Source: an uncultured Pirellulales bacterium
Lineage (GTDB): Bacteria > Planctomycetota > Phycisphaerae > Sedimentisphaerales > SM23-30
DNA length: 13,918 nucleotides
Reading direction: 5' to 3'
NCBI GenBank assembly: GCA_964574885.1
Contig: CAZNQT010000061.1
Coordinates: forward strand, 1-13,918
Shown: piece by piece, positions 1-13,918 of the stretch
How positions within the stretch are numbered: position 1 is the stretch's first letter
Layout of the letters: each line of letters begins with the position of its first letter
Notes under the pieces: generated by a model
Databases searched by the model: none
The model's input: the letters and a program-made list of their open reading frames with translations, nothing else
Told to the model about the DNA's origin: nothing
Made by a program: the position numbers and the translations under genes

Positions 1-380
1 GTCACGTCGAATGGCGGGACTTTGATCCAACGGTGCTCGGCGGTAATTATCACGGTCATTATGGATATGGCCCGCAATGTACCGTTACACCGGTTGATCA
101 AGCCCGAAGTCACCCGATTCTTCGAGGCGTCAAACTGCCGTTTATCAGCATGGGCTCCTTATATAAAAACAATCCCTTAAAACCTTCTACTACCTGTCTG
201 CTCATGGGAAATATACCGGATAATAAGACCCCGGAACCGGTCGCCTGGACGAATACCTATAAAACCTCTCGCGTATTTTATACCTCGCTTGGATATCCGG
301 ACGACTTCAAAAATCCTGAATTCGTGCGCCTGCTCGCCAATGCCATCCACTGGGCCCTGGATATGCCCATTCCAAAATAA
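1..380 (+). CDS. ThuA-like (trehalose-utilization / class I glutamine-amidotransferase-like fold) protein, C-terminal part. The gene starts upstream of the window (frame 3 is open back to position 3).
   Basis: The frame is open from nt 3 with no in-frame stop before the ATG at 33, so the listed 115-aa ORF is the tail of a longer gene. The C-terminal motifs (...WTNTYKTSRVFYTSLGYPDDF...ANAIHWAL) match my recollection of the conserved ThuA-family C-terminus. ThuA partners with the Gfo/Idh/MocA enzyme ThuB in 3-ketotrehalose formation, which is coherent with the rest of the locus. Confidence 0.55.
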   Translation, partial: HVEWRDFDPTVLGGNYHGHYGYGPQCTVTPVDQARSHPILRGVKLPFISMGSLYKNNPLKPSTTCLLMGNIPDNKTPEPVAWTNTYKTSRVFYTSLGYPDDFKNPEFVRLLANAIHWALDMPIPK

Positions 381-443
381 ACCATACGTAGTTTCCATCC
401 GTTAGGGATTCATTCCGTTGGCTTCAAGGAAACCGACGTGTGG

Positions 444-475
444 CACCCCCAAGCTCGCGGACTCGCTTGGGGGTG
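444..475 (+). terminator. GC-rich hairpin downstream of the ThuA-like gene, a candidate transcription terminator with no immediate U-tract.
   Basis: cacccccaagc (444-454) and gcttgggggtg (465-475) form an 11-bp perfect stem with a 10-nt loop, 64 nt after the stop at 380. A T-rich stretch (ttccttttc) follows only ~20 nt later. Confidence 0.4.
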
Positions 476-564
476 GAGGTCATCGAAAAGAAATTCCTTT
501 TCAGCGCCGGATTTAATCGGTACGATTACGCATGTTTCAAAATACTCTCTTGTTATAAGAAGAG

Positions 565-729
565 TTTTACAAAATTGAGGTTAGGCATATTTTGGAAAGA
601 AAAAATTCTTGCATAATTTTTTCTTTTCAAATCGCAAGTTGTTGTGTAGTAGTATGTTATAAACTTATTTAAGAAAATCCTTTCCGGGATTTTCTTAAAT
701 AATTTATGCCTAACCTCAATTTTGTAAAA
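565..729. repeat. Symmetric composite inverted-repeat element in the 5' leader of the Nramp-like operon: 25-bp perfect terminal IRs enclosing two 16-bp hairpins.
   Basis: 565-589 ttttacaaaattgaggttaggcata is the exact reverse complement of 705-729 tatgcctaacctcaattttgtaaaa. Hairpin A has stem 592-607/615-630 with loop cttgcat. Hairpin B has stem 665-680/687-702 with loop tttccg. Each hairpin sits 2 nt inside an IR arm and a 34-nt AT-rich core lies between them. Confidence 0.55.
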
Positions 730-766
730 GTTCAGTTATAATTGCCGAACTGGGTAAGGAGCAGGT

Positions 767-2587
767 ATGAGCGAGCAGAAATCTCCATCCACCGAGCAGC
801 AGGAATTAGCCCGTGGTTTACCGATGTTTTCCGCTTCGGATCCGGAGGCGCTGGCGGCAGAGAAAACCAGGCTCTCAGCCGTCCAAAATAAAGGCTTGCT
901 GACCCGCTGGAGAACCTATTTCTCCATGACCGGTCCCGGTTGGTTGCAGAGCGCCATGACGCTCGGCGCCGGCAGCGCGATGGCATCGTTGTTCTTGGGG
1001 GCGTATTATCAATATCGACTGTTGTGGATTCAGCCGCTGGCCATGGTTCTAGGTATCATTATGCTCTCGGCTATGTCGTATCAAACGCTCACCACCGGCG
1101 CCCGACCCTTTGATGCCATGCGAAAATTCATCCATCCCGCGATGGCCTGGGCCTGGGCCCTGGCGGCCTTGGCGGCGACTGTAATCTGGCATTTCCCGCA
1201 ATATGGTCTCGCCGCCGGCATGCTCGAAGACATGATCAAAGCGGCAACAAAATGGGAACCTACCGGTGCAAAACAAACCATTCTTTTATTGGCGATCGGC
1301 ATGGTGTTTCTGATCGTCTCCACCAAGATCACCTGGAACTACGAGGCGGGACATAAAGGTATCCGTATTTATGAAAAAGCCTTAAAGGGCATGGTCTGGA
1401 TGATCGTACTGGCGTTTGGCATCGTGGTGGTTTATACCACCGTACAGGGAAAGATTGCCTGGGGCCAGGTGTGCAAAGGATTTCTCCCCCTGCACATACC
1501 GACCGATTCGATGGGGATCAAAACGATCACCGGCGCCTTCAGTGCCGCGGTGGGAATCAATATGACGTTCTTATTTCCCTATACCCTGTTGGCGCGTGGG
1601 TGGAGTAAAGAGCATCGCGGGCTTTCCCGGTTTGATTTGATCTCCGGGATGCTGGTGCCGTACTGTCTGGCCACCTTGTTAATGGTAATTGCCACCGGAG
1701 GTACCATTTATCATACGCTGGAAAATCTGAACGTGAAAGATATTAAAGATCTTCCTGCTCTGGCGAAAAAGGTAACCGCCCAAGGCGCTCTAACGAATCC
1801 CGGTCCCAGCCGGCGACTCTGGCAGATGTTGGATCCAGACACGCAAACTCTCCTACAGGAAATCGCCCTGGCTAACGAAGCGACCGACGAACAAAAACAA
1901 GCGGTTTGTACGGCGCTGAATACCATCATCGCCAAACCGAATTTTTATACGGAAGAGGATTTCGCGAGCATCAAGGCAAAATTGCCCGTAAACACGAAAG
2001 ATATTCTTAAAAGAGATCAAAACCAATTGATCGACAAGGAAATTCGTTTACGAAATCGCCAAACTCTGGATACCGCCTTCCCGGAGAACATAAACGCATT
2101 ATCCTTACGAGTTTCCCCCACCAAGGCGGCCGGCATGTTTCAAGCGGTTGGTGTTACCCCATTTGTCTCCCGTTATATTTTCGGATTGGGCATACTGGGA
2201 ATTGTATTAAGCTCGATTACCCTGCAGATGTTGATGGCCGGTTTCGGCGCCTGCGAAATATTTAAATGGGAACCGGGCGGCAGAGCCTATAAGCTGGCCT
2301 GTCTGATCCCGGCGCCGGCCGTGCTGGGCGTAGTGCTCTGGAAGTATATGGGCACCTGGATTGCCATTCCGACTTCCGCGATCTGCGGCGTCATGCTGCC
2401 GATTGCCTATATCGGTTTTTTCCTGCTGAATAACAATAAAAAATATCTGGGCGACGCGACGCCGCGCGGCGGCAAAGCCGTATTCTGGAACCTCGGTATG
2501 GTAATTGCCATTGCAGCATCGATCGTCAGTGCCATTTATTTTCTGTATGCCGTATTTTATAAATGGTTGATACATCTATTCTCATAG
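767..2587 (+). CDS. Nramp/MntH-fold membrane transporter (606 aa) with substituted metal-binding residues and a ~140-aa hydrophilic insertion. Substrate unknown.
   Basis: RBS AAGGAG at 756-761. About 11 predicted TM segments. TM1 GPGWLQSAMTLGAGSAMASLFLGAYYQYRLLW aligns with the Nramp signature GPGFL..IAY.DPGN......AGA..GY.LLW, but DPGN is replaced by GAGS. In the TM6 region, AVGINMTFLFPYTLL aligns with A.IMPHN.YLHS, so Met becomes Asn and His becomes Thr. A long hydrophilic segment (aa ~325-465) lies between TM7 and TM8. Confidence 0.75.
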   Translation: MSEQKSPSTEQQELARGLPMFSASDPEALAAEKTRLSAVQNKGLLTRWRTYFSMTGPGWLQSAMTLGAGSAMASLFLGAYYQYRLLWIQPLAMVLGIIMLSAMSYQTLTTGARPFDAMRKFIHPAMAWAWALAALAATVIWHFPQYGLAAGMLEDMIKAATKWEPTGAKQTILLLAIGMVFLIVSTKITWNYEAGHKGIRIYEKALKGMVWMIVLAFGIVVVYTTVQGKIAWGQVCKGFLPLHIPTDSMGIKTITGAFSAAVGINMTFLFPYTLLARGWSKEHRGLSRFDLISGMLVPYCLATLLMVIATGGTIYHTLENLNVKDIKDLPALAKKVTAQGALTNPGPSRRLWQMLDPDTQTLLQEIALANEATDEQKQAVCTALNTIIAKPNFYTEEDFASIKAKLPVNTKDILKRDQNQLIDKEIRLRNRQTLDTAFPENINALSLRVSPTKAAGMFQAVGVTPFVSRYIFGLGILGIVLSSITLQMLMAGFGACEIFKWEPGGRAYKLACLIPAPAVLGVVLWKYMGTWIAIPTSAICGVMLPIAYIGFFLLNNNKKYLGDATPRGGKAVFWNLGMVIAIAASIVSAIYFLYAVFYKWLIHLFS

Positions 2588-2621
2588 AAAGTTCGGATTC
2601 GATTAAACTTGGGAGAGACCT

Positions 2622-3662
2622 ATGAAAGTATGGAATTTTGGCATCATGGGCGCGGGTCTGATCGCGGATTTTCACGCCCGCGCGATCGGTGATATCGAAA
2701 ACGCCCAACTCATCGGCTTTACCGATACGACCCCGGAAAAAGCCCGACAGTTGGCCGATAAGCATTCCTGCCGTGCGTTTGCGGATAATGAGGAATTATT
2801 GAATTGTCCGGATATTGATATTGTCACCATCGCCACTCCCAGCGGCGCCCACCTGGAACCCGCGGTAGCCGCCGCCCAGGCCGGCAAACACGTTATCTGC
2901 GAAAAACCGCTGGAAATCACGCTCGACCGCGTCGATGCCATGATCGCCGCCCACGAAAAAGCCGGTACCCTGCTCGGCGGCGTGTTCCAGAATCGATTCA
3001 ACGAAGCGATGATTCCCCTCCGCGAGGCGGTCCGGGCGCAGCGGTTCGGCAAAATTACCTTTGCCGGCGTCTATGTCCCCTGGTGGCGCGAGGAATCCTA
3101 TTACCAGAGCAGTTGGCACGGTGCCTGGAAACACGACGGCGGCGGCGCCTTAATGAATCAGTCGATCCACACGATTGACATGCTCTGCGATTTGATGCCG
3201 CCGGTCGAATCCGTCCAGGCCTACGCCGACCACCTCGCCCACGACATCGAAGCGGAAGATACCGCGGTCGCCGCCCTGCGGTTTACCAACGGCGCGCTCG
3301 GTTTGATTTACGGCACCACCGCCTCCTGGCCCGGCCAGTTCAAACGATTTGAAATCACCGGCGCCAAGGGCACCGTCGTGTATGTGGAAGACAGTTTAAC
3401 CGTCTGGCAGTTCGCCGAGGAAAAGCCGGAGGATGAAGAAATCCGCCAAAAATACGGCAGCATCCAAAACACCGGCGGCGGCGTAGCCGACCCCGCGGCA
3501 ATCTCCTATCAGGGCCACAGGAAAAATTTCCAGGCGTTTCTCAAAGCCCTCGAAACCGGAGGCGATTTCGAAATCTCCGGCGTCGAAGGCCGTAAGTCCA
3601 TCGAACTCATCCTCGCCATCTACCAATCCGCCAAAGAAAAGAAACTCATTCGTCTGACATAG
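2622..3662 (+). CDS. Gfo/Idh/MocA family NAD(P)-dependent oxidoreductase, cytoplasmic.
   Basis: N-terminal Rossmann motif GIMGAGLIADFHARAI and the family hallmark HVICEKPLEIT (the EKP motif). No signal peptide. It lies 34 nt after the Nramp-like gene, with GGGAGAG 6 nt before its ATG. Confidence 0.9.
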   Translation: MKVWNFGIMGAGLIADFHARAIGDIENAQLIGFTDTTPEKARQLADKHSCRAFADNEELLNCPDIDIVTIATPSGAHLEPAVAAAQAGKHVICEKPLEITLDRVDAMIAAHEKAGTLLGGVFQNRFNEAMIPLREAVRAQRFGKITFAGVYVPWWREESYYQSSWHGAWKHDGGGALMNQSIHTIDMLCDLMPPVESVQAYADHLAHDIEAEDTAVAALRFTNGALGLIYGTTASWPGQFKRFEITGAKGTVVYVEDSLTVWQFAEEKPEDEEIRQKYGSIQNTGGGVADPAAISYQGHRKNFQAFLKALETGGDFEISGVEGRKSIELILAIYQSAKEKKLIRLT

Positions 3663-3676
3663 GAAAAGAATATCTC

Positions 3677-5083
3677 ATGAAAATAGATATAACACCAGTA
3701 GCGGCTCAACTGTATTTTCTCCCCGTCCAAACCCGCGTGCCGCTCAAGTTCGGTCCGGAAACCCTGACCTCCGTCACCTGTGCGCGGGTCTGTTTGACCG
3801 TGCAGGATCGACCGGGTAAAACCGCCCAAGGCTGGGGCGAAACGCCCTTGAGCGTGCAGTGGGCCTGGCCCAGTTCGATCAGTCTGCAGGAGCGAACGGA
3901 CGCCATGCAGCAATTCTGTCAGTTCTTAACGGAGGTATGGGGACTTGTCGTGGACGACTGGGGGCATCCCCTGGAAATTGGGTATCAATTTCAGAGCGAT
4001 TTTTTAACCAGTACTTTAAAGAAATTTAATCTGGAGGAGCGCAAGGATCGAGAACCCCTGCCGCACCTAGCCGCTTTGATCTGCAACTCCGCTTTCGACA
4101 TTGCGCTGCACGATGCTTATGGAAGTCATTTGGAACAGGATGTTTATACTACCTACAACTCGAATTTCATGAACGCCGACTTGGAGAAATATCTAACTCC
4201 CGCGGAGGGAGCGAACATATCGTTCGCGGGTAAATATCCCGCCGATTTTATGATCTTCCCTCCGCCGCAGCAACTGTCCGCCTGGCACCTGGTCGGCGGG
4301 AAAGATCTATTAGAGGAATCCGAACTCACCGGCGATGAACCGGATGATGGCTATCCGGTCTTGTTGCCGGACTGGATCCGACGCGACGGCTTGACTTGTC
4401 TTAAAGTGAAGCTCCGCGGTAACGATGCCGAATGGGATTATGATCGCTTAGTCAAAGTCGGCGCCATCGCGCTGAAACATGACGTCCTCTGGCTCACCAG
4501 CGATTTCAACTGTACCGTCAGCGATCCCGCCTACGTAAACGAAATCCTCGACCGCCTGACGATAGAACACCCTCGGATCAGTCAGATGATCCTCTACGTC
4601 GAGCAGCCATTCCCCTACGACCTGGAGGCCAACCAGATCGACGTCCACAGCGTTTCGGCTCGCAAACCTCTGTTTATGGATGAAAGCGCCCACGACTGGA
4701 AATTTGTCAAGCTCGGTCGCACGCTGGGTTGGACCGGCGTCGCTTTGAAAACCTGTAAAACCCAGACCGGCGCCCTGTTGAGCCTCTGCTGGGCCAAGGC
4801 TCACGGTATGACGCTGATGGTACAGGACCTGACCAATCCCATGCTCGCTCAAATCCCCCACGTTCGCCTGGCCGCTCACGCCGGCACCATCATGGGTGTC
4901 GAAACCAACGCCATGCAGTTTTACCCCGCCGCCTCCGAACTCGAAGCGAAAATCCATCCCGGCATCTATCAACGCCGTAACGGCCGGGTGGACCTCTCCT
5001 CAGTCCACGGCCCCGGCTTCGGCTACCGCCTCGACGAAATCCGACGCGAATTACCCCCACCCGCCGCTTCCTGCTCCCGGTAA
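3677..5083 (+). CDS. Enolase-superfamily protein of the mandelate racemase / muconate-lactonizing-enzyme type (468 aa), candidate sugar-acid or sugar-lactone cycloisomerase or dehydratase.
   Basis: The KxK motif LKVKL is present. Candidate metal ligands are D in LTSDFNC, E in YVEQPF and D in FMDESAHD. A second-half Lys lies in ALKTCKTQTG. There is an N-terminal capping-domain-like region. The gene starts 14 nt after the Gfo gene, so it is in the same operon. Confidence 0.8.
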   Translation: MKIDITPVAAQLYFLPVQTRVPLKFGPETLTSVTCARVCLTVQDRPGKTAQGWGETPLSVQWAWPSSISLQERTDAMQQFCQFLTEVWGLVVDDWGHPLEIGYQFQSDFLTSTLKKFNLEERKDREPLPHLAALICNSAFDIALHDAYGSHLEQDVYTTYNSNFMNADLEKYLTPAEGANISFAGKYPADFMIFPPPQQLSAWHLVGGKDLLEESELTGDEPDDGYPVLLPDWIRRDGLTCLKVKLRGNDAEWDYDRLVKVGAIALKHDVLWLTSDFNCTVSDPAYVNEILDRLTIEHPRISQMILYVEQPFPYDLEANQIDVHSVSARKPLFMDESAHDWKFVKLGRTLGWTGVALKTCKTQTGALLSLCWAKAHGMTLMVQDLTNPMLAQIPHVRLAAHAGTIMGVETNAMQFYPAASELEAKIHPGIYQRRNGRVDLSSVHGPGFGYRLDEIRRELPPPAASCSR

Positions 5084-5126
5084 TACTCCATACCACCAGG
5101 TCCCGTTGCGCTTTGCCGCTCACACT

Positions 5127-6497
5127 TCATTTGTATTTACGGAGAAAATATCGATATTGATGGTAAGACAGGCCCACGTCGCGGGCGGCCTGGGCCTGGT
5201 TGCCGGCAGCCTGCTCCAGCGCTTCCGTGATGAGGTGTTTTTTAAAGGCTTCCACCTTTTCGTTAAAGGTATTGCCTCTTATGGCAGTGGACGTTTCCGG
5301 TAAAAAGCCCAAATCCTCCGGAGTAATTTCATTGGTGGTATCGCGATAGGCGGCACGCTCGATAATATTTTTCAGTTCGCGGACATTGCCGGGAAAATCA
5401 TACTTTTCCAGGACGTCCAAAGCGGTTTTACTGAGCCGTTTGCCGCCGAGGGAAGGAATTTCCTGCATAAATTGAGATAGAAAGTGTCGCGCCAATAGGG
5501 GGATGTCTCCTTCTCTCCGGCGTAGTGGCGGCACCGAGATGATCTCAAAACTGAGGCGATCATAGAGGTCGCGTAGGAATTTGCCTTCCTCCATCTTCTT
5601 TTTCAGATCGACATTAGTGGCGGCGATGATACGCGTATTGACCTGAATCTCCATTGATCCCCCTACCCGGGTAAAGGTGCCGTATTCCACCACGCGGAGA
5701 ATCTTTTGTTGGAACGGAAGCGACATATTGCCAATTTCATCCAGAAACAGTGTGCCGCCGCTGGCCAACTCAAATTTGCCGTGCACCTGGTGATCGGCGC
5801 CGGTAAAAGCGCCTTTTTCGTGGCCAAACAACTCTGCTTCCAGCAAGGAATCCGGAAAGGCCGAACAATTGACCACCACCATGGGCCGACCGCTGTCACC
5901 GGCGGCAGTATGGATCGCCCGCGCCACCAACTCTTTCCCCGTTCCGCGCTCACCGAGAATCAACACTGGACGTGGGATGGTCGAGACGCGTTCGATCTGT
6001 TCGAGAACTTTTCTGATCTGAGGTGAGTCTCCGCCGATCCGGAACCGCTGCCGGGCCGTTTCCTGGAGCAGCATATTTTGCTCCCGAAGGATTCGGTTGC
6101 GATGGATTAGATTCAGATGGGGGCGGAATTTATTCAAAAAGGTGGTAACGCGATCGCCCAGTTTACCGGTCCGAACAAGAAAATCGTTGGCGCCGGCTTG
6201 AATGGCCTGGGAGACAATTTCCACATCTCCTCGCTCGGCCACGATCACAATCGGCAGGTCCGGAAATTCCCGACGAATCATCGGCAATAATTCAATGCCG
6301 CTCGACTGCCCATCGCCGATTTCATAATCCATAATCAGCAGATCCCCCGTCAATCCGCTGCGCAATTTCTCCAACAGACGCTGAGCGGAAAACACTCTCT
6401 CAATTTGACAGTCATTCTTGGATGCCTGCGTGAACGCTTCGATGAGAGTATCGAGCCGATTTTCAGGCGTATCAAGAAAGATAAATTTTCTATTCAT
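5127..6497 (-). CDS. Sigma-54-dependent transcriptional activator (NtrC-family response regulator: receiver, AAA+ sigma-54 interaction and Fis-type HTH domains).
   Basis: The receiver domain carries a phospho-acceptor-like Asp (LLIMDYEIGD). Walker A is GERGTGKE. The GAFTGA motif (EKGAFTGA) defines sigma-54 contact. Walker B is LFLDEIG. The C-terminal HTH is AARDVGLSYHQYRYFLRKY. The track ORF begins at a TTG (6521). The ATG at 6497 (MNRKFIF...) is the more likely start. Confidence 0.9.
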   Translation of the reverse strand: MNRKFIFLDTPENRLDTLIEAFTQASKNDCQIERVFSAQRLLEKLRSGLTGDLLIMDYEIGDGQSSGIELLPMIRREFPDLPIVIVAERGDVEIVSQAIQAGANDFLVRTGKLGDRVTTFLNKFRPHLNLIHRNRILREQNMLLQETARQRFRIGGDSPQIRKVLEQIERVSTIPRPVLILGERGTGKELVARAIHTAAGDSGRPMVVVNCSAFPDSLLEAELFGHEKGAFTGADHQVHGKFELASGGTLFLDEIGNMSLPFQQKILRVVEYGTFTRVGGSMEIQVNTRIIAATNVDLKKKMEEGKFLRDLYDRLSFEIISVPPLRRREGDIPLLARHFLSQFMQEIPSLGGKRLSKTALDVLEKYDFPGNVRELKNIIERAAYRDTTNEITPEDLGFLPETSTAIRGNTFNEKVEAFKKHLITEALEQAAGNQAQAARDVGLSYHQYRYFLRKYK

Positions 6498-6652
6498 AAT
6501 GCATACGATCCAGAAATACAACTGTGCTAGAAATCCAATATCAATTCAACCTATCAGATCAGTACACCGCGGTCAAGGATTTATGATACTTTTCACTACA
6601 TATATAGTAAAAACTCCCATGTATTTCCGCTATAATCCAAGGTACATATTTT

Positions 6653-6679
6653 ATAAGTTATTATTACAAAATAACTTAT
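6653..6679. promoter_or_regulatory. Perfect 10-bp inverted repeat (ATAAGTTATT-N7-AATAACTTAT) immediately upstream of the sigma-54 promoter. It is a candidate activator, IHF or repressor site.
   Basis: Arms are at 6653-6662 and 6670-6679. The IR centre lies 30 bp upstream of the -24 GG, in the divergent intergenic region between the EBP gene and the SPFH operon. Confidence 0.4.
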
Positions 6680-6694
6680 GATCTTTATATCTTT

Positions 6695-6710
6695 TGGCAT
6701 GATAATTGCG
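6695..6710 (+). promoter_or_regulatory. Sigma-54 (RpoN) -24/-12 promoter driving the SPFH operon.
   Basis: TGGCATGataaTTGCg matches TGGCACG-N4-TTGCA. The GG at 6696-6697 and GC at 6708-6709 have the canonical 11-nt register. It is oriented toward the SPFH gene (ATG 6781, RBS AAAGGAG 6768-6774) and sits beside a divergently encoded sigma-54 EBP. Confidence 0.6.
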
Positions 6711-6780
6711 ATTTTCCCTTTCCAGACGGCTATACGGAAGTTTGATGCCTAGGAAATTAATGAATTGAAAGGAGCCCATT

Positions 6781-7809
6781 ATGAAAAAGTTATCCATTCT
6801 TTTATTCAGTCTAGTAGCCCTGGGACTGATCGGCAGTGGATGCAAACCGTATAAAGGGGAAAAATTTGAAGAAGTTCAGAATCACGAAACGGCGTTTGTC
6901 ATACCGTATGAAGGCGATCTGGCCAAACAAGAGAAATTGAAATCTCTGGACGCCCTGGAATCCTATCAGGTAGCGATTAAACGAATCGATATTCCCCGAC
7001 GCTGGAAGAAAACCGGTCGTTTGTGGTGGGCTGGGGAGTGGATCGACGTCGTCAAGGTGATCAAGGTGGATCGCTCGCCCGTGACTCGGGAGTGGACCGC
7101 CAGCCGGGATACCGGTACCAGCGTTCGCAACGAAGGGATCTGGATCGAAAGTGAAGACAGCGTTTCCTTTAGTACGGGATTTACCTGTACGGCGTTCATT
7201 AAGGAGGAAGACGCCGCCCGGTTTTTATATCACTATCCCAACGGCCAACTCGCCGTCATCATGGATAACCAAGTCCGCGCTGAAATTCAATCCAAGGCAG
7301 CGGAAATCGCCGCCCTGTACAAAATGGATGAATTGCGGGCGAAAAAAGCGGAAATCATCCAGGGAGTACGCGAACATGTAATTCCATTCTTTAATCAGAC
7401 AGGCATCACGATTACTACCATCGGTATGTTTGGCGGTTATACGTATGAAAATCTGGAGATCCAAAAAGCGATCGACAACACCTTTGTGGCCCAGCAGGAA
7501 AAAGTAATTGCGGCGGCAATGTATGAGGCGCAGGAAGACAAGAATCGCCGCATTGAAAAGGAAGCTGAAGCTCAAAAAACCGCTTCGGTCATTAAAGCCA
7601 ATGGTGAAGCTGAAGCAATTACCATTGTTGCCCGGGCCGCCGAAAACGCTCAAAAGAGTCCGGCCTTTCTGCAACTGCGTAAGTTGGAAGTGGAATCTCT
7701 GCGTATCGAAAAATGGGATGGCCGATATCCCAGTCATTACTGGAACACCGCGAATACCGACGGCCTGGGAATTATCGTCAACACACCGAACCTAACGGAG
7801 AGTGAATAA
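6781..7809 (+). CDS. SPFH/Band-7 (stomatin/prohibitin/flotillin/HflKC-like) domain lipoprotein.
   Basis: Signal peptide with lipobox MKKLSILLFSLVALGLIGSG|C. The SPFH core is followed by a coiled-coil region rich in E, A, Q and K (EAQEDKNRRIEKEAEAQKTASVIKANGEAEAITIVARAAENAQ) that is typical of the family. Confidence 0.8.
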   Translation: MKKLSILLFSLVALGLIGSGCKPYKGEKFEEVQNHETAFVIPYEGDLAKQEKLKSLDALESYQVAIKRIDIPRRWKKTGRLWWAGEWIDVVKVIKVDRSPVTREWTASRDTGTSVRNEGIWIESEDSVSFSTGFTCTAFIKEEDAARFLYHYPNGQLAVIMDNQVRAEIQSKAAEIAALYKMDELRAKKAEIIQGVREHVIPFFNQTGITITTIGMFGGYTYENLEIQKAIDNTFVAQQEKVIAAAMYEAQEDKNRRIEKEAEAQKTASVIKANGEAEAITIVARAAENAQKSPAFLQLRKLEVESLRIEKWDGRYPSHYWNTANTDGLGIIVNTPNLTESE

Positions 7810-8081
7810 TGAAAGCGAAGATTATTAATATGGTATGGTTACTGATCGTGTTATTTGCTTTGAATTTCATATTGCATCAGTGGGCCATACCTCACAACAC
7901 GACGGATCTGGCACTGCAGCAAATGAACGAAGATGGTTCGCGGGAACAGCTACGGGCCTGGGAGGAACTTTCCAACTGGATTACCCTGGGGTTATCGATA
8001 GCGGGATTGGCGGGGATGTTACTCATTTGGTTTAAACCCGACGCCCGGCCCTCGCCATCGGGAACAGGCTTTAGGGCTTAA
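7809..8081 (+). CDS. Small (90 aa) two-TM membrane protein translationally coupled to the SPFH gene, possibly a minimal NfeD-like partner.
   Basis: The start overlaps the SPFH stop (TAATG at 7807-7811). It has two hydrophobic helices (VWLLIVLFALNFIL and ITLGLSIAGLAGMLLIWF) flanking a ~35-aa polar loop. SPFH genes are commonly paired with small membrane partners. Confidence 0.55.
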   Translation: MKAKIINMVWLLIVLFALNFILHQWAIPHNTTDLALQQMNEDGSREQLRAWEELSNWITLGLSIAGLAGMLLIWFKPDARPSPSGTGFRA

Positions 8082-9457
8082 AGCGACCAGGGAGTTCGCA
8101 TGGGTGTGCCGAGCATACGGTTTGCCTGCTCATCGCCGATACACTGTTCCTTCTCAGCGTCCCAATGCAGTTTCCGCTGCAACTTCATGGCGATGTTGCC
8201 CAGGTGACAGACGCTCGTCGAGCGATGTCCCACTTCGATCGGCGTAATCGGTTCGTTCCCGTTCTTGATGCAATCCAGGAAATTGCGGTGATGGTCGGTA
8301 CTCTTGTAGAGGTGGATTTCACTGGGCCCGATCACGGAATCTCGTAATGATTCCGGATAGGTCTTGCAGGTTCGCCAATTCGCCTCGATCCAGCCCTCCG
8401 TCCCTTCGAACCGATGCGTGGTACTCTCCGAGCTGGTCTGGCAAATCACATCGACGCCGTTGGCGTACCCCAATCGAAAATGAACGTACGTTGCCGTCGA
8501 AAACAATCCGTCTTTGGGGAATACTCCTCCGAGATCTTCCACTACCACTGGGCCGGTTCGGTCGGTCCCCATCGCCCACTGTACGATATCGAGTACGTGC
8601 ACTCCCAGGTTGGTCGTCTGTCCGCCGCAGTGATCCCAGACGAACCGAAACGTATAATGCGTACGGTCCCGATGATAGGGCGCCCAGGGCGCCGGCCCCA
8701 GCCACATCTCGTAATCCAGCGTCTTCGGGATCGGCTGACTTTCCCAGGCGCTCGCCGCCGAGGTACGATTGTTCGGACCCACCCAGCACAGTACGCGCTG
8801 GAGTGTACCAATCCGACCGTTCCGGATCAGTTCGCAGACGTGACGGAGATGCTGATTCGCCGAACGATGATGCGTTCCGGTCTGAAACACTACACTGTGC
8901 CGTTGGACCGCCTCCGCCATGGCCCGACCTTCCGCGATGGTCAGACTCAATGGTTTTTCCCCGTAAATATGCTTACCCGCTTTCGCCGCCTGGATCGCCA
9001 GAATCGCATGCCAGTGATCCGGCGTGGCGATCATCACCGCATCGATATCCCCCCGCGACAGCAAGTCCCGAAAATCCCCGTACCCGTCGCAACCTTTGAA
9101 AGTCCCCTTACTGCGCTCGTCGGCGTAATGTTTATTCACCCGTTCCTGTGCCGGTTCGCGTCCCAGGTACCCCCCTTTGTTATACCAGTGATTGTAAATG
9201 TTTGTACCCTGTTCCGGATCGCAGACCGCTACCATTTGCACATCTTTATTGGCCAGGAAGCTCATCATATTATTCGTGCCCATGCCGCCCAAACCAATGC
9301 AGCCCATCACGATCCGATTACTGGGCGCGTTCGCGCCGAATACCGAGGAGGGCACTACATACGGCGCCGCCATTACCGATGCCGCCACCGCGCTCGAACG
9401 CTTTATGAATTCCCGCCTACTTAATTTATTCTTCTGATTGGGGAAAGGCTCGGACAT
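8078..9457 (-). CDS. Tat-exported Gfo/Idh/MocA family oxidoreductase, a periplasmic glycoside-3-dehydrogenase-like enzyme.
   Basis: Twin-arginine signal SRREFIKRSSAVAASVMAAP. The dinucleotide-binding motif is MGCIGLGGMG. The hallmark is HIYGEKPLSLT. The preferred start is the ATG at 9457, where RBS AGGAGAGG is ~9 nt upstream. The track start at 9484 is a GTG abutting that RBS. Confidence 0.9.
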   Translation of the reverse strand: MSEPFPNQKNKLSRREFIKRSSAVAASVMAAPYVVPSSVFGANAPSNRIVMGCIGLGGMGTNNMMSFLANKDVQMVAVCDPEQGTNIYNHWYNKGGYLGREPAQERVNKHYADERSKGTFKGCDGYGDFRDLLSRGDIDAVMIATPDHWHAILAIQAAKAGKHIYGEKPLSLTIAEGRAMAEAVQRHSVVFQTGTHHRSANQHLRHVCELIRNGRIGTLQRVLCWVGPNNRTSAASAWESQPIPKTLDYEMWLGPAPWAPYHRDRTHYTFRFVWDHCGGQTTNLGVHVLDIVQWAMGTDRTGPVVVEDLGGVFPKDGLFSTATYVHFRLGYANGVDVICQTSSESTTHRFEGTEGWIEANWRTCKTYPESLRDSVIGPSEIHLYKSTDHHRNFLDCIKNGNEPITPIEVGHRSTSVCHLGNIAMKLQRKLHWDAEKEQCIGDEQANRMLGTPMRTPWSL

Positions 9458-9483
9458 TATCATTCCTCTCCTGAACGATATCA

Positions 9484-9545
9484 CCCCTGCGCAGGCAGGG
9501 GTCCAGGAACATCTTTATCGACTGGATTCCCGCCTGCGCGGGAAT
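9484..9545. repeat. Two tandem GC-rich hairpins between the DUF1080 gene stop and the Tat-Gfo gene start. They look like a terminator or a recurrent palindromic motif.
   Basis: Hairpin 1 is cccctgc-gcag-gcagggg (9484-9501). Hairpin 2 is attcccgc-ctgc-gcgggaat (9526-9545). Both share the core CCTGCGC(A)GG. The spurious translation of this region reads PAQAGVQ...LDSRLRGND. Confidence 0.45.
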
Positions 9546-9572
9546 GATATATTAGTATCGTTTTGCTGTGGT

Positions 9573-10895
9573 TTATTTATCTTTCTTCACAATCGGAATC
9601 AATACGATATTACGGAATTCCATTGGGGACCCTTCCGCCTGCAGGCAGATCTTGCCGGGCGTCTCCCAGCATTCCGTCGCCGTATTTTGCAGCAAGCCGT
9701 TGACGTAGAGTTCCAGGTTACTTTTGTCCAAATTTATTTCATACTCGTTCCATTGACCGATTGGCTTTTCGTTGGATTTATGCATTTTCCCCGTATGGCG
9801 CCCGTTAGTCCGTGAGGGGTCCACCTTCATGGGGAATTTATCGATATTCCAGATATCGCCCATGGCATCGGATTGCCCCTGGGCTTCGATGGATCGAGGC
9901 CACACCTTGTCCGGGCCAACCATTCGCAGTAGTACGCCCCCATTGCCCTTGCTGATATGCCGCAACTGCATCCGCAGTACGTAATTCGTATAATCTTTGG
10001 TTGTACGGATATACCCGGTAGGTCTGCCTTTATCGACTAAAATGCCGTCTTTCACGAACCAGGCGGCGTCCTCATTTTCACTGGAAAAGGTCCAGCCGTC
10101 GAGATTCTCGCCGTTGAACAGCCGGACGGCTTTGCCGAAATGATCCGGTAACTGTTTAATCCGAATGTCCTTGAAATCTACGATCATCGGCGAGCCTGCG
10201 TGTATCTGCAGCGCCAGTACGCCTTCCAGCAGCGCCCCCTTGCGATCGTTCTTATCTTTGGGATCAACCACCCGGTCATTATCAATTAATTCCATGGTCT
10301 CATAGCCGTTGAGATATTGAATCAGATGATTCCCCCGTGCGACGATCTTATATTCATTCCAGTCTTTCAGTTTATAATAGCCGGCTTTTTTCAGGGCTTC
10401 TACGTCCGAAACTTTACCGACGACGTTCTTGTTGCCTTTTTTATCGATTTCCATGATATCGCCGACGTTGACCAGCCAGCCTCGACCACTTTCATGATAT
10501 AAAAATCCCACCTTGCCCGGTGTATCTTCCACTTCCGCCTGGTAGCCGTTAATGCGCCATTTCTCATGTTCTTTACTGCGGTACTGGATGCCTGAGTTGC
10601 CGTTTTGAATCCGGAATTTAATTTTGAGAATGAAATTCTTGAGCCGCCCGCCCCGCCAGACGCAAAAGGTATTTCCCCGCGCCGGATTTTCCGGCGTCGT
10701 CTGACCTCGAATCGCGCCATCGACGACCTTCCACAACCGCGGATCGCCGTCCCAGCCGGTCAGATCCTTGCCGTTGAAGATCCGGGTAAAGCCCGGCTCC
10801 AGTTTTTCCTCCGCTGCCTGACTCCGGCCGTTCGTGATGCCAATGACCATCCCCATCGCTAACAGCAAACCGATTTGATTCCATTTCCCATGCAT
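9573..10895 (-). CDS. Secreted protein with two tandem DUF1080 / 3-keto-disaccharide hydrolase (PF06439-like) domains.
   Basis: Signal peptide MHGKWNQIGLLLAMGMVIGITNGRSQA. Two repeats each open with the family motif (FNGKDLTGWDGD...W.V.DG and FNGENLDGWTF...WFVKDG) and close with ..Q.HaGSPM.F..I.I. or LQAEGSPMEFRNIVLI. A strong RBS GGAGGTG lies 4 nt before the ATG. Confidence 0.85.
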   Translation of the reverse strand: MHGKWNQIGLLLAMGMVIGITNGRSQAAEEKLEPGFTRIFNGKDLTGWDGDPRLWKVVDGAIRGQTTPENPARGNTFCVWRGGRLKNFILKIKFRIQNGNSGIQYRSKEHEKWRINGYQAEVEDTPGKVGFLYHESGRGWLVNVGDIMEIDKKGNKNVVGKVSDVEALKKAGYYKLKDWNEYKIVARGNHLIQYLNGYETMELIDNDRVVDPKDKNDRKGALLEGVLALQIHAGSPMIVDFKDIRIKQLPDHFGKAVRLFNGENLDGWTFSSENEDAAWFVKDGILVDKGRPTGYIRTTKDYTNYVLRMQLRHISKGNGGVLLRMVGPDKVWPRSIEAQGQSDAMGDIWNIDKFPMKVDPSRTNGRHTGKMHKSNEKPIGQWNEYEINLDKSNLELYVNGLLQNTATECWETPGKICLQAEGSPMEFRNIVLIPIVKKDK

Positions 10896-11345
10896 GATAC
10901 ACCTCCAATTACGTTAGAACCAATCTTGCCTGTTATGACATTGTCGCATCATACCCAAAACAATTCGTGTAGTCCAACTGATTCGACGTGCCACAACGGG
11001 TTATTTATGAAATAAAACTTCACCAATTCCCTCCTGGAGGCTGACCGGTATATCTCGTAAAACACCATACGTTCTGATTACAAACCTTTTGAATTTAACG
11101 CTTTACGGCGCCGGCATTGGTTGCACAGGATGATAATTGATGCCGCTCACTTATCATTATGCTGGGGCCGGCAATGCGAAAAATCCCAGCCCCGAAAAGG
11201 CTGTTTGATAATTCTCTCAACCTAACTTTTTCCGAGGAAAGCGGGAAATTGTGAATCCAACTCGCTCGGACTTGAGTATTCCCGGTCATTATGTTAGAGT
11301 ATTTGGCTCAAAAAACGTGCGTGGTACCGTGATGAGGATAGTACG

Positions 11346-12722
11346 ATGATGGAAATTAAAAACGATCTTACGCCGGCGGACCTGCTGCCGAAAATCGAAC
11401 GTATGTGGGACTTATCCGGCAGAAAAATCAAGTCGATCGAAAGCGTCTGGAAACCTGCCGATGGTTCGCCCGTGTTTACCATCCAGGGCAAATACACCGC
11501 CCAGGGCTGGACCGAGTGGACCCAGGGATTTCAATTTGGTTCTGCCATCCTGCAGTTCGACGCCACGGACGACGAGGACTTCCTGCAAATCGGTCGCGAT
11601 AAAACCTTCCAGGTCATGGCCCCCCATATCACCCACATGGGCGTACACGATCATGGTTTTAACAACGTCAGTACCTATGGCAATCTGCGCCGCTTGATGA
11701 ACGAGGCCCGCATCGAAGAAAATCAGCGGGAGCGGGATTTTTATGAACTCGCTCTCAAATGCAGCGGCGCCGTCCAGGCCCGACGCTGGACGAAGACCAA
11801 GGACGGCGGCGGATTCATCTATTCCTTCAACGGACCGCATTCCCTTTTCTGCGACACGATACGTTCCCTGCGGGCGTTGGCGGTTTCCTATATGTTGGGA
11901 CACGTGCTGATGGAAGAAATGGATAAACCGGTCTCGCTGCTGGATCGACTTTTCCAGCACGCCCGCTCCACGGCTAAATATTCCGTCTATTACGGCGAAG
12001 GCCGCGATAGCTACGACGTCTGGGGCCGTGTCGCTCATGAAAGCGTCTTCAACGTTAACGACGGCAACTACCGCTGCCCGAATTCGCAGCAGGGATTTTC
12101 GCCCTTTACCACCTGGACGCGCGGCTTGGCCTGGATCATGGCCGGATACCCCGCGCAACTGGAGTTCCTCGCTACGCTGAAAGACAGAGAGATCGAACCG
12201 TTCGGCAGACGTACCGAGATGGAAGACATCATGCTCAAAGCCGCCCAGGCCGCTTGCGATTTCTACATCGAAAACACCACGCCCGAAGGCATCCCCTATT
12301 GGGACGCCGGCGCCCCCAACCTCTACAAACTGGGAGATTATCTGAACGCCAAAGCTGATCCCTACAACGAACATGAACCGGTGGATGCTTCCGCGGCGGC
12401 GATCGGCGCCCAGGGATTGGTTCGTTTGGGATGCTACCTCGAAAATAAAGGCGACGCCGAAGACGCTAAACGCTATTTCCAGGCCGGATTAACCGTGCTC
12501 GACACCCTCCTGGACGAACCCTACCTCAGCACCGACGAGAATCATCAGGGCCTGCTGCTGCATTCCGTATATCATCGGCCTAATGGCTGGGATTACATCC
12601 CGGAAGGAAGAAAAATCCCCTGCGGCGAATCCAGCATGTGGGGCGACTACCACTTTCGCGAACTCACCCTCTACGTCCGGCGCCTGGCTAACAATATGCC
12701 CTACTATACCTTCTTCGGTTAA
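11346..12722 (+). CDS. (alpha/alpha)6-barrel protein resembling GH88/GH105 unsaturated glycuronyl / rhamnogalacturonyl hydrolases. The family assignment is tentative.
   Basis: A 458-aa cytoplasmic protein. The C-terminal motif SMWGDYHFRELTLYV resembles the conserved WGDY(Y/F)F.EAL element near the C-terminus of GH88/GH105 enzymes, as I recall it. The acidic, Trp-rich composition is typical of sugar-binding alpha-barrels. RBS GAGGA lies ~8 nt upstream of the ATG. Confidence 0.5.
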   Translation: MMEIKNDLTPADLLPKIERMWDLSGRKIKSIESVWKPADGSPVFTIQGKYTAQGWTEWTQGFQFGSAILQFDATDDEDFLQIGRDKTFQVMAPHITHMGVHDHGFNNVSTYGNLRRLMNEARIEENQRERDFYELALKCSGAVQARRWTKTKDGGGFIYSFNGPHSLFCDTIRSLRALAVSYMLGHVLMEEMDKPVSLLDRLFQHARSTAKYSVYYGEGRDSYDVWGRVAHESVFNVNDGNYRCPNSQQGFSPFTTWTRGLAWIMAGYPAQLEFLATLKDREIEPFGRRTEMEDIMLKAAQAACDFYIENTTPEGIPYWDAGAPNLYKLGDYLNAKADPYNEHEPVDASAAAIGAQGLVRLGCYLENKGDAEDAKRYFQAGLTVLDTLLDEPYLSTDENHQGLLLHSVYHRPNGWDYIPEGRKIPCGESSMWGDYHFRELTLYVRRLANNMPYYTFFG

Positions 12723-12781
12723 TCCGGGATTGTATAGATGTCATCCTGAGCGCAGCGAAGGATCTAAAATTGGCTGGGTGG

Positions 12782-12806
12782 CATGCTCAAGCGGAGCTTG
12801 AGCATG
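12782..12806 (+). terminator. Candidate intrinsic terminator downstream of the GH88-like gene.
   Basis: catgctcaagc-gga-gcttgagcatg forms an 11-bp stem with a 3-nt loop, followed by ...ttgtttta. It lies 60 nt after the stop at 12722. Confidence 0.45.
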
Positions 12807-12858
12807 AACGAATTGTTTTATACGCCATTCAATATGGAAATTTTCAGGAGTGATCATT

Positions 12859-13305
12859 GTGAATATCATCGATATCAGGAATATCGAAGGTCGCACCTAT
12901 CCGGCCCGTCGGCGCACCCGACCGCTCGTCGGTCCGGGATTGTCGATCGATACGGACAAGTTCAGTCTTGGCTACGTCGAACTGGAGCCAAACGGCGGTC
13001 AGGTCCCCTGGCACAATCAGGATCAGGTGGAAATCTATCTTCTCCTCGAAGGAACCTGCGAAATGTGCCTGGGCGCAGAAAAGCAAACTATGACCGCAGG
13101 CCAAATCATCGAAATTCCCTCCGGCGTATTCCATCAGATTACCAATATCGGCGACACTCCTGCCCGGATGATATACTGCTATTCCCCCGGCGGCGACGTC
13201 GCCCACTGGCGCCAGGAACTCACCGGCGCCCTGCCCAAGGCCGGTGACGACGCGCCTCCTTTACCTGACGGAGCTCATCCCCAATGCACGGATAAACCTG
13301 AGTAA
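12859..13305 (+). CDS. Cupin-domain (RmlC-like beta-barrel) protein.
   Basis: Cupin motifs: G(X)5HXH-like region ...PNGGQVPWHNQDQVEIYLLLEG and second motif G..IEIPSGVFHQITNIG. The ORF-track start at 12850 is a GTG overlapping the RBS CAGGAG. The GTG at 12859 with 8-nt spacing is preferred. The stop overlaps the RBS of the next gene. Confidence 0.7.
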   Translation: MNIIDIRNIEGRTYPARRRTRPLVGPGLSIDTDKFSLGYVELEPNGGQVPWHNQDQVEIYLLLEGTCEMCLGAEKQTMTAGQIIEIPSGVFHQITNIGDTPARMIYCYSPGGDVAHWRQELTGALPKAGDDAPPLPDGAHPQCTDKPE

Positions 13306-13316
13306 GGAGTAATAAT

Positions 13317-13918
13317 GACCACGCATAATATCGGCATCATCATGAACGGCGTCACCGGACGCATGGGTACGAACCAGCATCTCATTCGGTCGATTTGTGC
13401 CATCCGCGAGCAGGGCGGCGTCAGACTCGACAACGGCGATACGATCATGCCCGAACCGTTACTGCTCGGTCGTAATCCCGACAAACTCAAAGCCCTTACG
13501 GAAAAAGCCGACATCGAAAAATGGTCCACTAATTTGGACGAAGCTCTGGCCGATCCGAATTACTCCGTCTATTTCGACGCCCAGACCACCAACCGTCGCT
13601 ACGAATGTGTCAAACAGGCCATCGCCGCCGGCAAGCACATCTACTGCGAAAAACCCACCGCTGAATCCTGCGCCCATGGTATGGAACTATATCGCCTGGC
13701 GCAAGCAAAAGGGGTTAAAAGCGGCGTCGTACAAGATAAACTTTGGCTGCCGGGTTTGCTCAAACTCAGACGCCTGATCGAGTCGAATTTTTTCGGTCGT
13801 ATCATCACGATCCGCATTGAGTTCGGCTACTGGGGCTTTGAAGGCCATCGCACACCCGCCCAGCGACCGTCCTGGAATTTCCGCAAGGAAGACGGCGGCG
13901 GCATTATCGTCGATATTC
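13317..13918 (+). CDS. Gfo/Idh/MocA family oxidoreductase, 5' part only. It runs off the 3' end of the window and is absent from the ORF track because there is no stop in the window.
   Basis: ATG at 13317 with RBS AAGGAG (13303-13308) overlapping the cupin stop TAA. Translation MTTHNIGIIMNGVTGRMGTNQH...AIAAGKHIYCEKPTAES contains the EKP hallmark. The frame stays open to 13918. Confidence 0.85.

Follow-up and report, generated by a model that had tools for sequence, protein, structure and literature searches.

Oxidative, non-Koshland cleavage of glycosides has been described only recently, and its extent and its forms outside the gut are an open question. In the closest described system, AL1-AL5/BT2156-BT2160 (Nasseri et al.; bioRxiv 10.1101/2024.03.25.586180), AL3/BT3 is a Gfo/Idh/MocA 3-dehydrogenase with tightly bound NAD that is exported by twin-arginine translocation (Tat), AL2/BT2 is a DUF1080 protein acting both as a 3-keto-alpha-glucoside 1,2-lyase and as an efficient glycal hydratase, and AL1/BT1 is a TIM-barrel beta-lyase. 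Contig CAZNQT010000061.1 of an uncultured planctomycete, a stretch of 13,918 bp referred to here as the window, resembles this system in placing a Tat-exported GFO_C2 oxidase (Tat-Gfo) beside a secreted DUF1080 protein (DUF1080x2), with more Gfo/Idh/MocA genes nearby. Unlike the AL/BT system, it has neither a secreted TIM-barrel beta-lyase nor a DUF6377 regulator, its DUF1080 is duplicated in tandem, and its remaining Gfo genes encode cytoplasmic proteins that do not resemble BT_2159 (<=31 bits). The same logic of pairing a Gfo/Idh/MocA dehydrogenase with elimination or hydration is found in levoglucosan degradation (LgdA/B1/B2/C) and in the C-/O-glycoside beta-eliminases (DgpA/BC, OGE). Compared with these, the LevoglcsnDh model gives 62-102 bits against a cut-off of 650, and the window lineage lacks TIM barrels, though relatives of its modules carry PF01261.

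A sequence-only reading of the window had proposed a variant of the oxidative 3-keto-glycoside route in which an enolase-superfamily enzyme, a GH88-like protein and a cupin take the place of the TIM-barrel lyase. The exported pair stands, as does a possible tie between it and the module of the GH88-like protein (GH88L), whereas substitution of the TIM barrel by alternative catalysts finds no support in synteny, compartment or active-site residues. The contig offers a useful lead but does not demonstrate that the oxidative glycoside pathway has a further version. Tentatively, we favor reading it as a mosaic of an exported 3-keto pair, a cytoplasmic acid-sugar supercluster, an unrelated insertion and the tail of a GH129-type fusion.

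The window is a complete contig, so extension beyond its ends is impossible and the lack of a TIM barrel in it is uninformative about the remaining genome. Listing and translating open reading frames (ORFs) in six frames gave 12 coding regions that fill almost the entire contig, and homologues of their products are annotated as Sedimentisphaerales, Phycisphaerae or Planctomycetota. Families were assigned by Pfam and NCBIfam hidden Markov model (HMM) scans, profile-profile comparison (hhalign) and Foldseek fold searches; compartments were judged by reading the protein sequences directly for signal peptides, and gene contexts in related contigs (given L numbers below) were cross-checked by tblastn. 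Every family anticipated by the sequence-only reading was recovered at its expected position, including three Gfo/Idh/MocA genes, one of them Tat-exported, and the enolase, GH88-like and cupin assignments survived HMM annotation. The window is not the single locus that had been supposed; its genes belong to four or more transcription units, spread over the two strands, and do not form one operon. The first runs from a ThuA-domain tail through a Nramp-fold transporter to an oxidoreductase (Gfo1) and the enolase-superfamily enzyme (Enol); the second is an unrelated block of a sigma-54 activator, an SPFH protein and a 90-aa ORF; the third is the exported pair; and the fourth consists of GH88L, the cupin and another oxidoreductase (Gfo3).

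The exported pair

The two genes of the exported module are:

8078..9484, minus strand: Tat-Gfo, exported Gfo/Idh/MocA oxidoreductase with a GFO_C2 C-terminal domain, AL3/BT2158-like (PF19051, E 3.8e-40)
9573..10895, minus strand: DUF1080x2, secreted protein in which the DUF1080 / '3-keto-disaccharide hydrolase' domain occurs twice (PF06439 twice, E 7e-67)

Tat-Gfo carries the motif SRREFIK, which TIGR01409 scores at 19 bits against a cut-off of 16.7; its true start may lie a few codons downstream of the GTG. Its best matches in the PDB are 8tdf and 8tdh (E 3e-30), which may be structures of AL3/BT3. Homology and predicted export thus point to an exported AL3/BT2158 homologue, for which a glycoside 3-dehydrogenase role would be expected. 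DUF1080x2 begins with a Sec-type signal, MHGKWNQIGLLLAMGMVIGITNGRSQA, matches 4jqt (E 1.7e-16) and lies upstream of Tat-Gfo in the same orientation, across a gap of 88 bp. The tandem DUF1080 protein is thus secreted, as predicted, and the 3-keto theme is borne out for this pair, whose Tat motif, PF19051 and PF06439 domains match it to AL3/BT3 plus AL2/BT2.

Because DUF1080 is already both lyase and hydratase in the published system, the exported module would be complete with no TIM lyase. Tat-Gfo and DUF1080x2 would between them cover oxidation, alpha-elimination and hydration, and by this analogy form a self-sufficient module of known type rather than a pathway from which the TIM lyase is a missing piece. 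Orthologues of DUF1080x2 are divergent from GH88L in L014, L015 and L029, as in the window. In L029 the orthologue stays although Tat-Gfo is gone, and a paralogue lies near GH88L in L016.

The cytoplasmic genes and their probable substrate

Five genes encode the cytoplasmic enzymes:

2622..3662, plus strand: Gfo1, cytoplasmic Gfo/Idh/MocA oxidoreductase of 346 aa (PF01408/PF22725/PF02894)
3677..5083, plus strand: Enol, divergent enolase-superfamily enzyme of 468 aa (PF13378, E 1.4e-10)
11346..12722, plus strand: GH88L, cytoplasmic member of a divergent GH88 subfamily (hhalign against canonical GH88, probability 99.8%, E 3.8e-29)
12850..13305, plus strand: monocupin of ~148 aa with an H-x-Q...E...H metal motif (PF07883, E 1e-15)
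13315..13918, plus strand: Gfo3, cytoplasmic Gfo/Idh/MocA oxidoreductase of ~383 aa, of which the first 201 codons precede the contig end (PF01408/PF22725)

None of the five has a signal peptide, and their catalytic folds start from the N-terminus. As a consequence, for Enol, GH88L and the cupin to finish the reaction of an exported oxidase, an import step would be required.

GH88L misses the gathering score of PF07470 (E 0.0036, 16.8 bits against 26.6). A 40-sequence profile of its family matches the unsaturated glucuronyl hydrolase (UGL) 1vd5 at E 3e-12 in HMMER, and its AlphaFold2 (AF2) model, with a predicted local distance difference test (pLDDT) score of 82, finds the GH88 UGLs 3wiw, 2zzr and 1vd5 as best Foldseek matches (E 6.5e-12 to 2.5e-10, TMt 0.75-0.81). 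The protein is therefore an (alpha/alpha)6 barrel with UGL as its nearest structural relative, and the pocket residues correspond as follows:

UGL to GH88L: W42 to W58, F46 to F62, D88 to D102, D149 to D170, H193 to H231, Q211 to Q249
UGL to GH88L: W219 to W257, R221 to R259, W225 to W263, Y338-H339 to Y409-H410

All of these residues, including both catalytic Asp, are invariant in 40 GH88L homologues, and D88, D149, H193, F46 and W42 of UGL have been named as functionally important (PMC4528949). In its fold, its two catalytic Asp, the equivalent of His193 and the remaining pocket residues that align, GH88L agrees with the UGL of Bacillus sp. GL1 (1vd5); it differs in being ~80 residues longer and only ~20-27% identical to characterized GH88 proteins. 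Within its own subfamily, identity is 68-73% across Planctomycetota, Verrucomicrobiota, Armatimonadota, Bacteroidota and Balneolaceae, a conservation unusually strong for a glycoside-hydrolase fold that suggests one small, universal substrate. In the ENA contig L033 (6647-9593) GH88L is split by an apparent frameshift (293 + 158 aa) and Gfo3 is likewise split, being called at 263 aa; these frameshifts may reflect pseudogenization or assembly error.

Enol has PF13378 as its sole Pfam match. Its AF2 model yields 210 PDB matches at E <= 0.001 in Foldseek, the best 50 of which are all of the MR/MLE type (top E 2.4e-14, TM 0.5-0.57), and has the capping domain and modified TIM-barrel of the enolase superfamily. 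Aligned to 3ik4, the catalytic residues are K243-V-K245, D276 (SDFN), E309 (VEQP), D335 (MDES) and K358: KxK on strand 2, three carboxylate metal ligands on strands 3-5 and a Lys on strand 6. The KxK/DxN/EQP/DES/K motifs are invariant in 40 homologues, and KxK and the strand-6 Lys are kept even in a 26%-identical Sinorhizobium homologue. This set is the signature of the MLE subgroup, whose members include muconate lactonizing enzyme, dipeptide epimerases and lactone and anhydro-sugar-acid cycloisomerases, and it predicts Mg-assisted proton abstraction next to a carboxylate. Enol shares the motifs, capping domain and barrel of the subgroup but departs from it in length (468 aa against ~360), in being 12-19% identical to any solved member and in lacking a match to the PF02746 N-terminal domain. 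With more than 8000 homologues, the best 120 of which are 72-88% identical, it constitutes a separate family whose genes invariably adjoin one for a Gfo/Idh/MocA protein and in many cases one for a TIM barrel.

The neighboring Gfo1 has an IolG-like model as its best NCBIfam match (144 bits, under the cut-off) and 3q2k/3q2i as its best PDB matches (E 4e-55), which are presumably WlbA UDP-GlcNAcA 3-dehydrogenases and thus sugar C3-dehydrogenases. Its orthologue adjoins that of Enol in every locus that extends past the Enol gene. Gfo1 and Gfo3 are not recent paralogues, being 24% identical. A full-length orthologue of Gfo3 (84%, in L029) matches the uncharacterized structure 3oqb (E 3e-153), and orthologues at 58-66% adjoin genes for GH88L, cupin, Enol-like and DHDPS-like proteins in other phyla. 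The cupin, which probably starts at codon 4 of the annotated ORF, has homologues 66-74% identical in Planctomycetota and Bryobacteraceae and is paired with Gfo3 in L017, L018, L029 and L030-L033.

The UGL pocket of GH88L and the MLE machinery of Enol argue for an acidic substrate rather than neutral 3-keto-glycosides. The cytoplasmic gene set would probably serve to break down a sugar bearing a carboxylate, with a saccharide that contains a 4,5-unsaturated uronate as the likeliest candidate. Its order, GH88L followed by a cupin and an oxidoreductase, parallels the known route from UGL through the cupins KdgF/KduI to KduD, and the set also resembles oxidative acid-sugar routes in which a sugar dehydrogenase works with an enolase-superfamily dehydratase or cycloisomerase. 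In contrast to both, its parts are not orthologous: the cupin has no detectable likeness to KdgF/KduI, the oxidoreductases are of the Gfo/Idh/MocA type and not short-chain dehydrogenases/reductases (SDR), and no polysaccharide lyase is nearby.

Gene contexts in other phyla are a third, independent line that points the same way. In Alphaproteobacteria, Gfo3 orthologues at 58-61% identity share operons with members of the Enol family, which links the two cytoplasmic halves of the window functionally and not merely by adjacency. A Sinorhizobium operon reads TetR, then Gfo3-DHDPS-like-Enol-like-TIM-Gfo, and one in Paroceanicella reads tripartite tricarboxylate transporter-TetR-TIM-Enol-like-Gfo3-DHDPS-like-TIM. 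The Enol-like proteins are 26% identical to the window Enol and align to it over 409 columns with an hhalign probability of 98.3%, motifs kept. DHDPS-family enzymes act on 2-keto-3-deoxy acids. Elsewhere, Rhizobium johnstonii 3841 pRL10 (L023:3287-9341) has a 26%-identical Enol-like protein with an opp-type ABC transporter, a KduI/IolB-family cupin, GH39, a TIM barrel and a 2-hydroxyacid dehydrogenase; in a haloarchaeon, an Enol-like gene is surrounded by genes for heparinase II/III and sulfatases; and in Bryobacteraceae the cupin-Gfo3 pair follows a sulfatase and a major facilitator superfamily (MFS) transporter. These three contexts agree with an acidic-sugar theme.

The conserved alphaproteobacterial operon (L034:8992-14922, L035:6777-12158) encodes an enlarged DHDPS-family protein of ~390 aa with no NCBIfam match, and the Gfo3-DHDPS pair recurs on plasmids of Rhizobium, Chelatococcus, Nitratireductor and Pseudoroseomonas. 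No characterized pathway was identified for this Gfo3-DHDPS-Enol-like operon; among the matched pSymB records only Sinorhizobium strain Ak57 has it, so that published fitness data could not be assigned to any locus tag. The L023 cluster is a further uncharacterized acid-sugar-like operon around the same enolase family.

From the family and fold assignments, the conservation of catalytic residues, the predicted compartments and the synteny patterns described here, we infer a possible scheme of substrates, regiochemistry, step order and hand-over from exported to cytoplasmic enzymes. Outside the cytoplasm, Tat-Gfo with tightly bound NAD would oxidize a glycoside at C3, and the DUF1080 domains would eliminate the aglycone and hydrate the glycal, with no need for a TIM barrel. 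The Nramp-fold protein would import the substrate of the cytoplasmic set, where GH88L might hydrate a vinyl ether as UGL does and release an unsaturated uronate. The cupin and Gfo3 could isomerize and reduce the resulting keto-acid, while Gfo1 and the Mg-dependent, MLE-type Enol might oxidize and then dehydrate, cycloisomerize or epimerize a carboxylated partner.

A number of observations weigh against this scheme. Tat-Gfo scores 168.5 bits against BT_2158_fam (NF058561), whose curated cut-off is 750, and so misses the equivalog level. The confidence of the Enol model is moderate (pLDDT 71) and is lowest in the barrel loops. The case for a uronate in the GH88L pocket draws on Arg221 of UGL, which we take to bind the uronate carboxylate, and the literature searched for roles of Arg221 and Gln211 yielded nothing. 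A KdgF/KduI identity for the cupin was rejected, as only Cupin_2 and related generic models match, PF04962 does not, and no KdgF/KduI is among the PDB matches at E <= 0.1. The window holds no genes for a polysaccharide lyase, KduI/KduD or KdgK/KdgA; a KDG-kinase-like PfkB was seen only in one Phycisphaerae contig, ~7.5 kb from GH88L, and the neighbors of GH88L include monosaccharide-type transporters. Furthermore, it is not obvious what an exported oxidase would do if the route were fed by uronides from a lyase. Such a feed leaves unexplained the Tat-Gfo found within a GH88L-TIM-Gfo3-SDR-MFS operon of Nibrella, for which an oxidative route spanning two compartments is the better fit.

Conserved gene order and competing readings

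Pfam scanning found no PF01261 TIM barrel among the 12 coding sequences of the window, and its intergenic gaps (<=450 bp) are too small to hold one; the TIM-barrel lyase is, as had been noted, missing from the window. Related contigs show how this absence is to be read. The cytoplasmic genes are syntenic in ~6 of them, including the near relatives L014-L018, in which GH88L is 92% identical to the window protein. L017 carries Nramp-Gfo1-Enol-GH88L-cupin-Gfo3 on a single strand, Enol is followed directly by GH88L in three independent contigs (L016, L017, L018), and in L014/L015 the Tat-Gfo/DUF1080x2 pair alone sits between the two cytoplasmic halves. An 88%-identical relative on a 218-kb contig (L029/L001) has DUF1080x2 on the minus strand, then GH88L, cupin, a 100-aa ORF and Gfo3; ~9 kb containing dnaA follow, and Enol-Gfo1-Nramp-GH129 lie on the opposite strand. 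That contig, the nearest long relative, has no Tat-Gfo in the region and no PF01261 in the ~33 kb around the orthologous genes (L001 and L029); what comes after its Gfo3 is a 95-aa ORF and dnaA, not a TIM barrel.

In more distant lineages, TIM barrels do occur directly among these genes. Enol-TIM(278 aa)-Gfo1 is found in two planctomycete contig families, Nibrella and a plasmid of Chondrinema have GH88L-TIM(~275 aa)-Gfo3-SDR, and L033 has GH88L-cupin-Gfo3-TIM. Enol, GH88L and the cupin thus normally accompany a TIM barrel and do not replace one, and in the window lineage the barrels have been lost from these positions or are kept elsewhere in the genome. Mapping the context of orthologues therefore cuts both ways for the proposed pathway variant: it speaks against the idea of substitute catalysts, which is also disfavored by the lack of signal peptides, set against an exported oxidase and DUF1080, and by the retained UGL and MLE residues, and it places a Tat-Gfo in the Nibrella GH88L-TIM-Gfo3 operon. 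The Enol-associated and GH88L-associated TIM barrels are not orthologues (21% identity), and the SDR of the Bacteroidota operons is not KduD, being a PRK12745 member that scores under the cut-off of the KduD models.

A reading that we consider unlikely, while taking it seriously, holds that all of these genes serve one oxidative 3-keto route in two compartments. Tat-Gfo and DUF1080 would act in the periplasm, a keto-glycoside or 2-hydroxy-3-keto-glycal would be imported, GH88L would be the glycal hydratase, Gfo3 the 3-keto reductase and the cupin or TIM barrel the eliminase or isomerase, with Enol as an accessory. It draws on the Nibrella operon, in which a Gfo_C2 protein bearing the Tat signal SRREFLKK and then MFS come after GH88L-TIM-Gfo3-SDR, on a similar arrangement in Chondrinema, on the divergent placing of DUF1080x2 and GH88L in the window, L014, L015 and L029, and on the monosaccharide-type transporters that adjoin GH88L. 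These operons hold a single TIM barrel and nothing that is plainly a hydratase; GH88 enzymes hydrate vinyl ethers, the reaction that a 2-hydroxy-3-keto-glycal needs. The presumed sugar C3-dehydrogenases 3q2k/3q2i, as the nearest solved relatives of Gfo1, also favor this reading. GH88L, however, keeps all checked UGL pocket residues, including the Arg and Gln expected for an unsaturated uronate; enolase-superfamily chemistry requires a carboxylate; and the orthologues of Gfo3 and Enol stand beside DHDPS-family genes and a tricarboxylate transporter. The known system already has an efficient hydratase in DUF1080, the cluster as found in L029 and L017 has no Tat-Gfo, and a GH88-fold keto-glycal hydratase is not reported in the literature searched.

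In the most far-reaching version of this reading the oxidative cleavage would act possibly on a uronide, with GH88L as a GH88-fold glycal hydratase, Gfo3 as reductase and the MLE-type enzyme in carboxylate-directed elimination or epimerization; we hold this version to be somewhat more doubtful still. If the two-compartment explanation were true, it would bring new elimination and hydration catalysts in several phyla (Planctomycetota, Bacteroidota, Acidobacteriota and Alphaproteobacteria).

It is improbable that the gene set is a chance juxtaposition in planctomycete genomes rich in Gfo/Idh/MocA, DUF1080, ThuA and TIM paralogues, with no shared pathway beyond operons of two or three genes. DUF1080 is over-represented in Planctomycetes (PMC5673643), and related contigs pack 4-5 Gfo and 3 TIM genes into ~20 kb, so that co-occurrence as such is weak evidence. 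Tat-Gfo and the sigma-54/SPFH block are variable, the cytoplasmic halves lie 9 kb apart around dnaA in L029/L001, and in L019 GH88L is on its own next to his genes. Synteny that is conserved carries more weight, and it speaks against chance: three independent contigs have GH88L directly after Enol, Alphaproteobacteria have the Enol and Gfo3 families in shared operons, and the GH88L-Gfo3 and cupin-Gfo3 adjacencies recur, at 58-70% identity, in Planctomycetota, Bacteroidota and Acidobacteriota. The crowded contigs (L002:1-21401, L004:1-18010) carry 4-5 Gfo/Idh/MocA, 3 TIM, ThuA, DUF1080 and DUF6807 genes, in one case in the order Tat-Gfo-ThuA-Gfo.

Equally hard to credit is that DUF1080x2 is a secreted glycanase feeding acidic oligosaccharides to the GH88L cluster with Tat-Gfo incidental, an idea prompted by DUF1080 proteins of the planctomycete Thermogutta whose expression rose on xanthan and which have been put forward as glycosidases of its backbone (PMC5673643), by THTE_1561, cited as an endo-xanthanase/lichenase (PMC9007349), and by the DUF1080x2 relatives near GH88L in L029, where Tat-Gfo is missing, and in L016, since in the window and L014/L015 the co-oriented pairing with an AL3-like Tat-Gfo at 88 bp is that of the characterized BT/AL system.

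Flanking genes and wider meaning

The remaining features of the window lie in the first two units:

1..380, plus strand: ThuA-domain protein, last 125 codons, cut by the contig end (PF06283, E 1.2e-13)
767..2587, plus strand: Nramp-fold membrane transporter of 606 aa (PF01566, E 1.5e-16)
5127..6521, minus strand: NtrC-type sigma-54 enhancer-binding response regulator (PF00158, E 1.4e-62, with Response_reg and HTH_8)
6695..6710, plus strand: sigma-54 -24/-12-like element TGGCATGATAATTGCG, ~70 bp upstream of the SPFH gene (pattern search)
6781..7809, plus strand: SPFH/Band-7 putative lipoprotein with N-terminus MKKLSILLFSLVALGLIGSGC (PF01145, E 3.8e-8)
7809..8081, plus strand: 90-aa ORF after the SPFH gene, with no family match

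The ThuA domain had been taken as a link to the formation of 3-ketotrehalose by ThuA/ThuB, the trehalose 3-dehydrogenase of rhizobia. The domain is real and common to both, but the window shows only its C-terminal fragment, and the next gene encodes the Nramp-fold transporter rather than a ThuB-type Gfo, so that a stand-alone ThuA beside a ThuB-type Gfo/Idh/MocA gene is not what is found. The fragment is 85% identical to the end of a single L014 ORF bearing GH129, isochorismatase and ThuA domains, and by this similarity it is probably the tail of such a fusion. In that ORF (L014:2-1876) ThuA is C-terminal to GH129/DUF5696 and isochorismatase (1283 aa with CBM4_9), and the corresponding L001 gene is CBM4_9-GH129 without ThuA. 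A fusion of a glycosidase to ThuA is unusual.

The Nramp-fold protein scores 27-29 bits with NCBIfam Nramp models, whose cut-offs are 50-430. Compared with E. coli MntH, GAGS aligns to the DPGN motif of TM1, MPH of TM6 is unconserved and INM stands there locally; without the DPGN/MPH metal site the protein is probably no metal transporter and may be an organic-solute importer on the Nramp fold. Its gene is syntenic with Gfo1-Enol in L001, L014 and L017 (83-86% identity in relatives), consistent with its being the importer of that operon. A large insertion of ~130 residues follows about residue 330.

The sigma-54 activator gene is divergent from the SPFH gene and its 90-aa companion. Matches to -24/-12-like elements across the window are not above chance, and the only intergenic one, at 6695-6710, is suggestive by its position alone; as it lies upstream of SPFH, sigma-54 control of the sugar operons was rejected. 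The block is absent from the syntenic clusters of L014-L018 and L029 and present only in the window, and a Sedimentisphaerales metagenome-assembled genome (L006) has 70-75% identical activator and SPFH genes close together (SPFH 75%). The block has been inserted here and has no connection with sugar metabolism; it is probably a stress or membrane module in its own right. The closest SPFH matches in genome and metagenome contig scans were relatives at <=75% identity only. Apart from the source contig, the one exact copy is a 906-bp Logan contig. An Rfam scan of the window gave no match, and its sigma-70 promoter and terminator scan was uninformative, with no excess over shuffles. Long ORFs at 8414-9424 (plus), 11412-12374 (minus) and 12783-13247 (plus), of 154-336 aa and antisense to or out of frame with Tat-Gfo, GH88L and cupin, encode Arg/Pro-rich, low-complexity products and look like by-products of codon composition, not genes.

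Taken together, the GH88 subfamily, the MLE-type enolase, the monocupin and the 3oqb-type Gfo are four strongly conserved uncharacterized families, which different phyla combine in different ways. For GH88L, two mutually exclusive predictions of the substrate follow, an unsaturated uronide or a keto-glycal, and whichever proved right would give an annotation to environmental genes by the thousand in Planctomycetota, Verrucomicrobiota, Bacteroidota, Acidobacteriota and rhizobia.

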